Notes: generated from the letters alone by a model not told the origin. DNA of 64,000 nucleotides from an uncultured Veillonellaceae bacterium (GCA_958348245.1 CATVYJ010000005.1:13625-77624); one strand, 5' to 3'; counted from the stretch's first letter, positions 16,108-17,233 are shown. Program-made: numbers and translations.

Positions 16108-17233
16108 CCACAACTCAAATCCGTACGTGTCCGAAACATACGACTATTTCTGTTTTTGGAATACGATTCCAGCGTCGCCGACATTCTTTCCGGCCGCCCG
16201 GAAAGAATGTCGGCCAAGAAAGGGCCGCCGCCCAGTCACTGCGGCCTGAAATTCTGGCTGGTCACTACCCTCCGCGCAACTCGCTCGCTACGCTCGCTCA
16301 AACAGGCGCTCCGGCTGACGCCACCAGCCAGAATTTCTCCCTTCGGGCACCGGCCTCCGTTCAAATGGGCGGGGAGCTGCACCAGTACTGATCTGTTTCT
16401 TTTCAGGCAGTGTGGTGGCAGGCACATTTCAATTCGTTTGATTCATTTCGCGCAGATTCAAATGCGTCGCGTACGTGTGAAGTATGCTGGTGCGGCCCCA
16501 CATCCTTCGCTATACTTTCCCGCATGCCCGTGGAAGATTTGTGTCGCCGCTTCGCGTCTCCCTTGTTTGCTTTGTTTGTGTGCAGACGGTGCGCAGTCGG
16601 GCAAGTGGTTTAACTTTCAGCACATGACGATAGAATTTTGGTGTCGCACGCTCTCGCGTGCATCCCTTATGCGATTCTTTCTCATCATGAAGAAGCGGAC
16701 CCACATACGACGAATACCTTTCTCGTCGTATGTGGGTCTGCTTCTGTGTTTGCGATACATAAGCGAAGGGGAGCCGCCGTAAGGCGCAACGAAAAAAGGG
16801 TACGGGAATATAAGCAGGCGTATCGTATGGGCCCGGCGTTCGCCGCCGGGCAGTTCGTGCGGGCTGCTCTTTATTTGTGCAGCCTTCTTTTCACCCACTC
16901 CCCGGCCAAGCGCCGGGATGTCATCCGGCCATTAGAAAAAGAGACGGTGCGGTTTCTGAAAAACCGCAGGAGGCGGGGCGGGCTGACGCGTCTTGCAGTT
17001 TGTACTGTTACGGCGGCATGTCGCTCTGTCGTTTTACCTCTCGCTGGATGTGCGCAGGGAATTACAAACTGAGCGGCAGCCCGCCCCGGCGACAGGCTCT
17101 TTTTCTACCGGCCGGCAGCTTCTTCCTTTGTTACTTTCCATTCTTCTCTGGAGAAGAAGGAAAGTAACGACCATGGCCTCGCATGCCATAAATGGAAATA
17201 TTCGTATGTTTCGGACACGTACGGATAGATTGT
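16108..17233. mobile_element. 1.1-kb element bounded by roughly 58-bp imperfect terminal inverted repeats (core 25 bp perfect: ATCCGTACGTGTCCGAAACATACGA). It has no convincing ORF and is packed with long perfect hairpins. It may be MITE-like, an IS remnant, or a structured RNA locus.
   Basis: Left arm 16108-16166 ccacaactcaaatccgtacgtgtccgaaacatacgactatttc... Reverse complement of the right arm 17175-17233: ccacacaatctatccgtacgtgtccgaaacatacgaatatttc... Internal hairpins at 16177-16214 (17-bp perfect stem), 16247-16338 (14 bp) and 16693-16740 (16 bp). Confidence 0.45.

Follow-up and report, generated by a model that had tools for sequence, protein, structure and literature searches.

What is the DNA that fills the gap between an adhesin locus and tyrS in the genome of an uncultured Veillonellaceae bacterium? 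The question was raised by a stretch of 64,000 nt (GCA_958348245.1, CATVYJ010000005.1:13625–77624; the window, in which positions are counted from the first nucleotide). A preliminary description had noted here a 1.1-kb element, devoid of recognisable genes and rich in long perfect hairpins. It had been read as a MITE-like element (MITE, miniature inverted-repeat transposable element) or insertion sequence (IS) remnant inserted between the adhesin locus and tyrS, or alternatively as a structured non-coding RNA locus. We found that the element is one copy of a repeat family, and at least four related Veillonellales/Dialister-like assemblies have related copies, either whole elements or lone arms, at unrelated sites between genes. 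On balance, and with modest confidence, we regard it as a lineage-specific, non-coding, foldback-shaped interspersed repeat that would act at the DNA level and evolve by dispersal, recombination between copies and slippage of its subrepeats. This reading builds directly on the family membership of the element, its dispersal, its polymorphism among strains, its lack of coding capacity, its conserved hairpins, its mosaicism and its variable number of subrepeats. Most likely, the element is selfish or recombination-prone repeat DNA.

Extent and architecture of the element

It was found that the element spans ∼16084–17391 and thus exceeds the interval first flagged (16108–17233), because its arms run on into tandem subrepeats of 41–43 bp. 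The coordinates of its parts are collected in Table 1. The element sits in a 1.5-kb gap between an open reading frame (ORF) for a Cys-rich protein of 90 aa (15728–16000) and tyrS (17516–18778). The inverted arms that had been described with a length of ∼58 bp were real, but the repeat finder gave them 76 nt each, with 78% complementarity and a spacing of 990 nt, and the unit extends beyond both of them. Their 25-nt perfect core, ATCCGTACGTGTCCGAAACATACGA, was confirmed to occur exactly twice in the window, on opposite strands, and it was matched in none of 100 shuffled sequences even with up to three mismatches permitted. The order within an arm was subrepeats, core hairpin, small hairpin, a hairpin of 15–18 bp, and then long hairpins specific to each arm. 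The left and right arms were homologous over ∼130 nt and divergent beyond. All three long hairpins of the preliminary description were recovered and were slightly longer overall. The fold z-scores against dinucleotide shuffles were −4.8 for 16084–16718 and −6.9 for 16719–17391, compared with +0.5 for a tyrS coding control.

The head motif GCGGNCCCACA was located at 16102, 16492 and 16695 on the plus strand and at 16741, 17243, 17284 and 17325 on the minus strand, the heads being plus throughout the left half of the element and minus throughout the right half. This layout makes ∼16084–17391 as a whole a giant imperfect palindrome, with the hairpin at 16691–16745 as its centre. The subrepeats of the right side open with the reverse-complemented form of the head GCGGNCCCACA, a TGTGGGTCCGC-like sequence, and within a subrepeat the head is followed by a short A/T-rich hairpin, e.g. 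GAAAA...TTTTC.

For comparison among strains, ten conspecific contigs (L004–L013) were taken from an exact-protein look-up of TyrS, and two of them, L006 and L007, carry orthologous copies of the element. Four subrepeats remain at the right end in the window and one at the left end. The orthologous copies have a mirror-image set of four subrepeats on the left side, and relative to them ∼118 bp with three subrepeats has been lost from the left end in the window. The number of subrepeats per end ranged from 1 to 8 and varied among strains; at the right end there were fewer in L006 and more in L007 than in the window.

Table 1. Positions of the repeat element, its modules and associated features in the window
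Feature	Position	Strand	Description
Foldback repeat element, full extent	16084–17391		Giant imperfect palindrome; aligns with L006, L007, L014 and L016
Left inverted arm	16102–16177	+	Head GCGGGCCCACA at 16102–16112; perfect core at 16119–16143; small hairpin GGAATACGATTCC at 16158–16170
Hairpin, module H3 type a	16177–16214		17 bp, perfect
Long hairpin	16248–16337		15-bp stem, perfect
Most conserved block of the left-type arm	16337–16386		CTCCCTTCGGGCACCGGCCTCCGTTCAAATGGGCGGGGAGCTGCACCAGT; long runs of invariant columns in alignments
Central hairpin	16691–16745		23 bp, 96%; head-to-head meeting point of the arms and symmetry centre
Compound long hairpin of the right-type arm	16925–17115		Nested stems 16925–16948/17092–17115 and 16974–16989/17073–17088
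Right-arm hairpin, H3 type b	17130–17168		One bulged T
Right inverted arm	17168–17243	−	Small hairpin at 17174–17188; perfect core at 17202–17226; first head at 17233–17243
Four tandem subrepeats of 41–43 bp	17233–17391	−	Starts near 17233, 17274, 17315 and 17358; reach the island/tyrS junction
Strain-variable island	11701–17391		Non-coding repeat element together with an ESPR/YadA-type adhesin and the Cys-rich ORF of 90 aa
Separate short subrepeat cluster	36030–36200	−	Gap between convergent MatE and SIMPL genes

Dispersed copies of the repeat family

A scan with a 20-mer of the core over one genome per species returned three loci, in a Veillonellales metagenome-assembled genome (L001), an uncultured Dialister (L002) and an uncultured Veillonellaceae bacterium (L003). 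A metagenome scan with a head-plus-core pattern of 21 specified bases yielded five true loci, four of which came from ERZ826016 (L014, L016, L017 and L021) and one from an uncultured Dialister/Veillonellaceae-type source (L019); four other matches were due to chance. Further copies of the inverted-repeat core, which the preliminary description had proposed to look for, were thus found in related genomes and in metagenome contigs. Copies at loci unrelated to that in the window were present in L001, L003, L007, L009, L014 and L016. The window contains one full copy and the short subrepeat cluster at ∼36.1 kb. The region at 36.0–36.3 kb was considered as a third polymorphic site and rejected, the gap between the called genes having the same length of 263 bp in eight other contigs.

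A complete two-armed copy with ∼79% identity was observed in L014 (2803–3930), with a low-GC gene of unknown function on one side and a biotin ligase gene on the other, and its context is therefore unrelated to that in the window. Lone arms were found in L014, L009 and L007. That of L014 starts at ∼7325 and reaches the head motif of the central hairpin at ∼7790. Those of L007 and L009 are ∼1.1 kb long and lie in the gap between the HD-domain and DUF3298 genes (19305–20539 in L007 and 19309–20507 in L009). An arm occupies the same position in L012, where the contig terminates within it, and none is present there in the window (26830–26925) or in seven other contigs. This gap was hypervariable among strains, measuring 154–267 nt between fixed anchors in its ‘empty’ forms. 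Contigs also terminated within copies in L016 (at both ends), L017, L019, L021 and L033, an effect that multi-copy repeats have on short-read assemblies. Overall, two-armed copies measured 1.1–1.45 kb and lone arms ∼0.5–1.1 kb.

The left arm of the window copy was mosaic. Its first ∼50 nt showed 90% identity to copies from other species-level lineages (L003 and L014) but 75–77% to the orthologues of L006 and L007, while the next 66 nt showed 97–98% identity to L006 and L007 and 47% to L003. Judged from these alignments, the pattern points to segment exchange between dispersed copies. ‘Empty’ sites retained degenerate heads directly past the upstream terminator. A TTTTTGCGTGCGG-like sequence was noticed directly after several terminators, at 11684–11700 and 26830–26845 in the window and near 7690 in L001. 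It looks like a degenerate subrepeat head, and such degenerate heads may be preferred landing or nucleation sites for the repeat family.

Position in a strain-variable adhesin island

In eight of the ten conspecific contigs, sbcC was followed by tyrS with a spacer of 168 bp and no island between them. An island of ∼5.7 kb was present in the window, L006 and L007, and the BLAST alignments broke at window positions 11700/17392. The repeat element is the right-hand part of this strain-variable island, in one unit with the adhesin gene, and not an insertion of its own between the adhesin and tyrS as previously proposed. The junction was clean: the empty site reads GGCGTGC/GCGGCGTC, and in L006 the sequence is GGCGTGC-ACGG...CCGT-GCGGCGTC without duplication, the junction showing only a 4-bp terminal inverted repeat, ACGG...CCGT. 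The identity to other strains shifted at the island edges, from 83–93% on the sbcCD side to 97–99% on the tyrS side, which suggests a recombination breakpoint.

Perfect 25-nt inverted cores around a 1-kb segment adjoining a surface adhesin gene bring to mind an inverton, in which a recombinase would flip the segment between the cores and thereby control the adhesin or tyrS. It was observed, however, that the segment had an identical orientation in three assemblies (the window, L006 and L007), no flipped copy being among them. The perfect identity of the two cores was specific to the strain of the window, since the cores of the two arms differed from each other in L006, L007 and L014, and the same arm was found singly elsewhere. 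No recombinase gene was called in the 10-kb flanks of tyrS in L004–L013. A promoter within the element could not drive the adhesin gene, which is encoded upstream on the same strand, and a consensus scan revealed a sigma-70-like promoter on neither strand of the element. An inverton is therefore, in our estimation, extremely improbable.

Another reading considered was that the element serves an integrated plasmid- or phage-like element in cis, for instance as iterons with a single-strand origin or as a partition site. Two inverted sets of tandem subrepeats, each subrepeat ∼42 bp long, enclose a hairpin-rich centre and do resemble iteron or centromere arrays. Nevertheless, the island contains no replication, partition or integrase gene. 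The plasmid and phage collections (blastn, distant mode) gave no match to the element, and the scans of viral contigs gave chance matches only, with no true relative. Several copies per genome at ordinary intergenic sites are also unlike an origin. This explanation is very unlikely. Two related ideas were rejected. The heads as DnaA boxes of an origin were dismissed, as there was no GC-skew inflection and the box was matched only at CCACA. An integron attC-like site was rejected on inspection, without a formal pattern search, as no GTTRRRY or RYYYAAC sites were seen and no integrase was called in the flanks.

Coding capacity and evidence on mobility

The absence of a recognisable gene from the element was borne out. 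In a six-frame comparison, no ORF held its frame or length over five homologous copies. The longest ORFs, among them one that had been called as a gene in L007, had no significant Pfam match. No transposase was found in the ORFs beside the copies in L014, L016, L001 and L003, and the transposase-bearing master copy that had been proposed as a search target was encountered neither in the fetched loci nor in the plasmids, phages and viral contigs. Target-site duplications, likewise proposed earlier, were detected neither around the arms (in the window, L006 and L014) nor at the island junction compared with the empty site.

These results bear on the main rival reading, a classical non-autonomous MITE or foldback transposon moved by cut-and-paste by a transposase that is encoded elsewhere and recognises the subterminal 41-bp repeats together with the core. 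Recognition of ends at multiple sites is known from Tn7, Mu, IS21 and eukaryotic foldback elements. The oriented subterminal repeat arrays at inverted ends, the full-length copy in an unrelated context in L014, the presence/absence polymorphism at two loci and the clean island junction relative to the empty site would all be in keeping with such a transposon. The clean junction, however, is a property of the whole adhesin island and not of the element. Lone and hybrid arms were common, the supposedly empty sites keep degenerate heads, and the identity between paralogues of 74–88% gave no sign of recent bursts. With no transposase near any copy, no plasmid or phage relative and no duplication flanking the arms or island, the tests for a duplication and for a master copy both failed on present data, and we judge a classical transposon to be possible but unlikely. 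Of the MITE-like or IS-remnant interpretation in the preliminary description, the non-coding nature, the terminal inverted repeats and the membership in a dispersed family are retained; the missing duplication and transposase copy, the presence of only one copy in the window, the lone arms and the blurred ends do not agree with it, and the size lies above the usual MITE range.

Conservation and strand symmetry of the hairpins

The hairpins were conserved as structures while their sequences changed. At the H3 position, a hairpin of 15–18 bp was found in 20/20 aligned arm copies, in four sequence versions that were all paired. The small hairpin alternated among copies between GGAAT/ATTCC, GGAGC/GCTCC and GGC/GCC. 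In the stem at 16248–16337, GAAATTCTGGCTGG of the window is replaced in L001 by GAAAATTTCGCCGG and the partner arm is altered to match, and compensatory changes in this stem were seen in L001, L009 and L014. The compound hairpin at 16925–17115 was highly conserved in L014, L016 and L001, and its inner stem showed a compensatory change from GCGGTTT/AAACCGC to GCGGCTC/GAGCCGC. For the most conserved block, CTCCCTTCGGGCACCGGCCTCCGTTCAAATGGGCGGGGAGCTGCACCAGT, long-range pairing with the upstream CCGCCGCCC was predicted. Hairpins with compensatory changes imply that the element is not simply decaying junk.

The consensus structure was then compared between strands. For eight left-type arms in the forward direction, RNAalifold predicted 63 pairs at −55 kcal/mol, of which 20 had double-sided changes and some were long-range. 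On the opposite strand, 72 pairs were predicted, 23 with double changes, at a slightly better energy of −63 kcal/mol. Across five full copies, neither the minimum free energies nor the G-U counts showed a consistent strand bias, and of the single stem mismatches on the same strand, some hairpins had G-T and others A-C. The structure is strand-symmetric, a pattern that is given by DNA palindromes and usually not by a strand-specific RNA gene, although the element may nonetheless be transcribed.

One or more large structured non-coding RNAs, e.g. one per arm, with the hairpins as selected RNA helices, would account for folding that is strongly better than chance, for compensatory changes in local and long-range pairs (e.g. 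columns 134–261 and 135–260) and for a C(UUCG)G/C(UACG)G-type hairpin within the most conserved block. Against this stand the equal folding and covariation on both strands with G-U pairs lacking strand preference, the negative promoter scan, and the module order, arm number and subrepeat count, which vary freely among copies. Rfam 15 at gathering thresholds, run on the whole window, reported no family at the element, and at E ≤ 1 on 15500–18000 it gave only sub-threshold, generic microRNA-type hairpin models. What stands of the structured-RNA alternative raised in the preliminary description is the maintenance of hairpins by compensatory change; the strand-specific signal and the Rfam family that could have been expected to go with it were absent. 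We consider such RNAs improbable.

A model for the repeat family and points against it

For the foldback-shaped interspersed repeat that we favour, the following model can be put forward. Two non-identical arms facing each other at 16691–16745 form the imperfect palindrome of ∼1.3 kb that makes up the right edge of the accessory adhesin island. Its palindromic modules could form extruded hairpins when the DNA is single-stranded or supercoiled, and the conserved heads would be candidate protein-binding sites. Copies may be dispersed to new intergenic sites through a putative trans-acting activity, recombination or gene conversion might take place among the dispersed copies, and slippage would alter the number of subrepeats. 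The DNA-level mode of action, the protein binding the heads and the means of spread are those parts of the model that we infer.

Several points weigh against this reading. Compensatory changes would equally fit a functional RNA, and part of the covariation among related palindromic repeats could be due to template-switch repair of palindromes rather than to selection. Paralogues were 74–88% identical, and orthologues ∼87% in strains with a tyrS flank of ∼99% identity, so that there is no evident sign of recent activity. The boundaries of the element are not sharp and fade into degenerate tandem subrepeats. Neither a duplication nor a gene-carrying copy came to light, nor any transposase or recombinase within or next to a copy, and about a dozen independent copies, all from incomplete genomes, underlie the analysis.

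A more far-reaching proposal is that the family constitutes an undescribed bacterial foldback element with functional hairpin domains. These would be either structured RNAs, one per arm, or single-stranded DNA structures for a dedicated recombinase or transposase that binds the GCGGNCCCACA arrays and helps to move or exchange accessory genes such as the adhesin. We regard this proposal as doubtful.

Comparison with known repeat families

The family was compared by description with neisserial intergenic mosaic elements (NIMEs) and with BOX, foldback and MITE elements. The NIMEs of Neisseria meningitidis consist of RS repeat units of 50–150 bp flanked by 20-bp dRS3 inverted repeats. The present family resembles them in its intergenic, mix-and-match repeat modules, which are non-coding, mosaic across copies and strains, and located beside surface-protein genes and accessory islands; both are thought to promote recombination. 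However, no sequence relationship is known, the host is a Negativicute, and long hairpins and subrepeats of 41–43 bp are here arranged in a foldback. Pneumococcal BOX elements have the structure boxA-boxB(n)-boxC, with three defined modules and a length of ∼100–400 bp. They share with the present family the intergenic location, the modular build, a tandem module of ∼45 bp in variable number, complementary ends that fold into a large stem-loop, and the lack of a known dedicated transposase. They differ in that the element here measures 0.5–1.45 kb, has many hairpin modules and carries its subrepeats at the ends and not in the middle.

Terminal inverted repeats, a non-coding nature and dispersed copies are shared with MITEs, the usual size of which is tens to a few hundred bp and is exceeded here by the two-armed copies (1.1–1.45 kb) and the lone arms (∼0.5–1.1 kb). 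Long inverted arms of tandem subrepeats in variable number (1–8 per end here) are shared with eukaryotic foldback (FB) elements. The family differs from both in its lone arms, in ends that are not sharp, and in that neither a target-site duplication nor an autonomous partner was found here. Repetitive extragenic palindromic (REP) units are 20–40 nt long with a GTAG-type head, and together with bacterial interspersed mosaic elements (BIMEs) and REP doublets (REPINs) they are mobilised by REP-associated tyrosine transposases (RAYTs). Like the present family, REP/BIME sequences have short palindromic units just past terminators, which form clusters of direct and inverted copies and vary among strains, but the unit architecture here is not that of REP, and no RAYT gene was seen in the loci inspected.

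Interspersed mosaic repeats are known from a handful of well-studied bacteria, and literature searches yielded no description of this family or of any such repeat for Veillonellales or Dialister-like gut bacteria. The family marks the edge of a strain-variable adhesin island and breaks metagenome assemblies. Through segment exchange between copies, it may mark hotspots at which surface-protein genes are gained, lost and shuffled. Should the heads turn out to bind a dedicated protein or the arms to be transcribed, it would offer a new handle on genome plasticity in the Veillonellales group. Its present value is that of annotation, as a repeat family and an island boundary, no new mechanism being in evidence.

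Neighbouring genes

Several observations were made on the genes around the element. The adhesin gene was split: the ORF with the ESPR signal peptide (from 11857) stops just past a G8 tract (11943–11950), and the passenger ORF (12035–15715) lies in the +1 frame relative to it, the split region being 11857–12040. Deletion of one G from the tract would join the two frames. The adhesin of L006 shares both the G8 tract and the split. From its sequence, the tract resembles a switch for phase variation by slipped-strand mispairing, in the off state in the assemblies of the window and L006.

The 90-aa ORF accompanies the adhesin in L006 and L007. It has two CxxC...CxxC motifs with only weak similarity to FCS-type zinc fingers, and it is an orphan, belonging to one eight-member cluster among 5.8 billion clustered proteins. 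It was considered as a partner protein of the element and rejected, since it lies beside no other copy and has weak zinc-finger matches only.

Rfam identified no T-box leader for tyrS. A GC hairpin followed by a T run (17472–17484, then TTTTTT) was observed within 17392–17515, ∼30 nt before the tyrS start, and was near-identical among the strains inspected, with the island present or not. It may be an attenuator of a kind other than the T-box. Three adjacent tRNA genes (30040–30273) were the sole matches above the Rfam gathering thresholds in the window.
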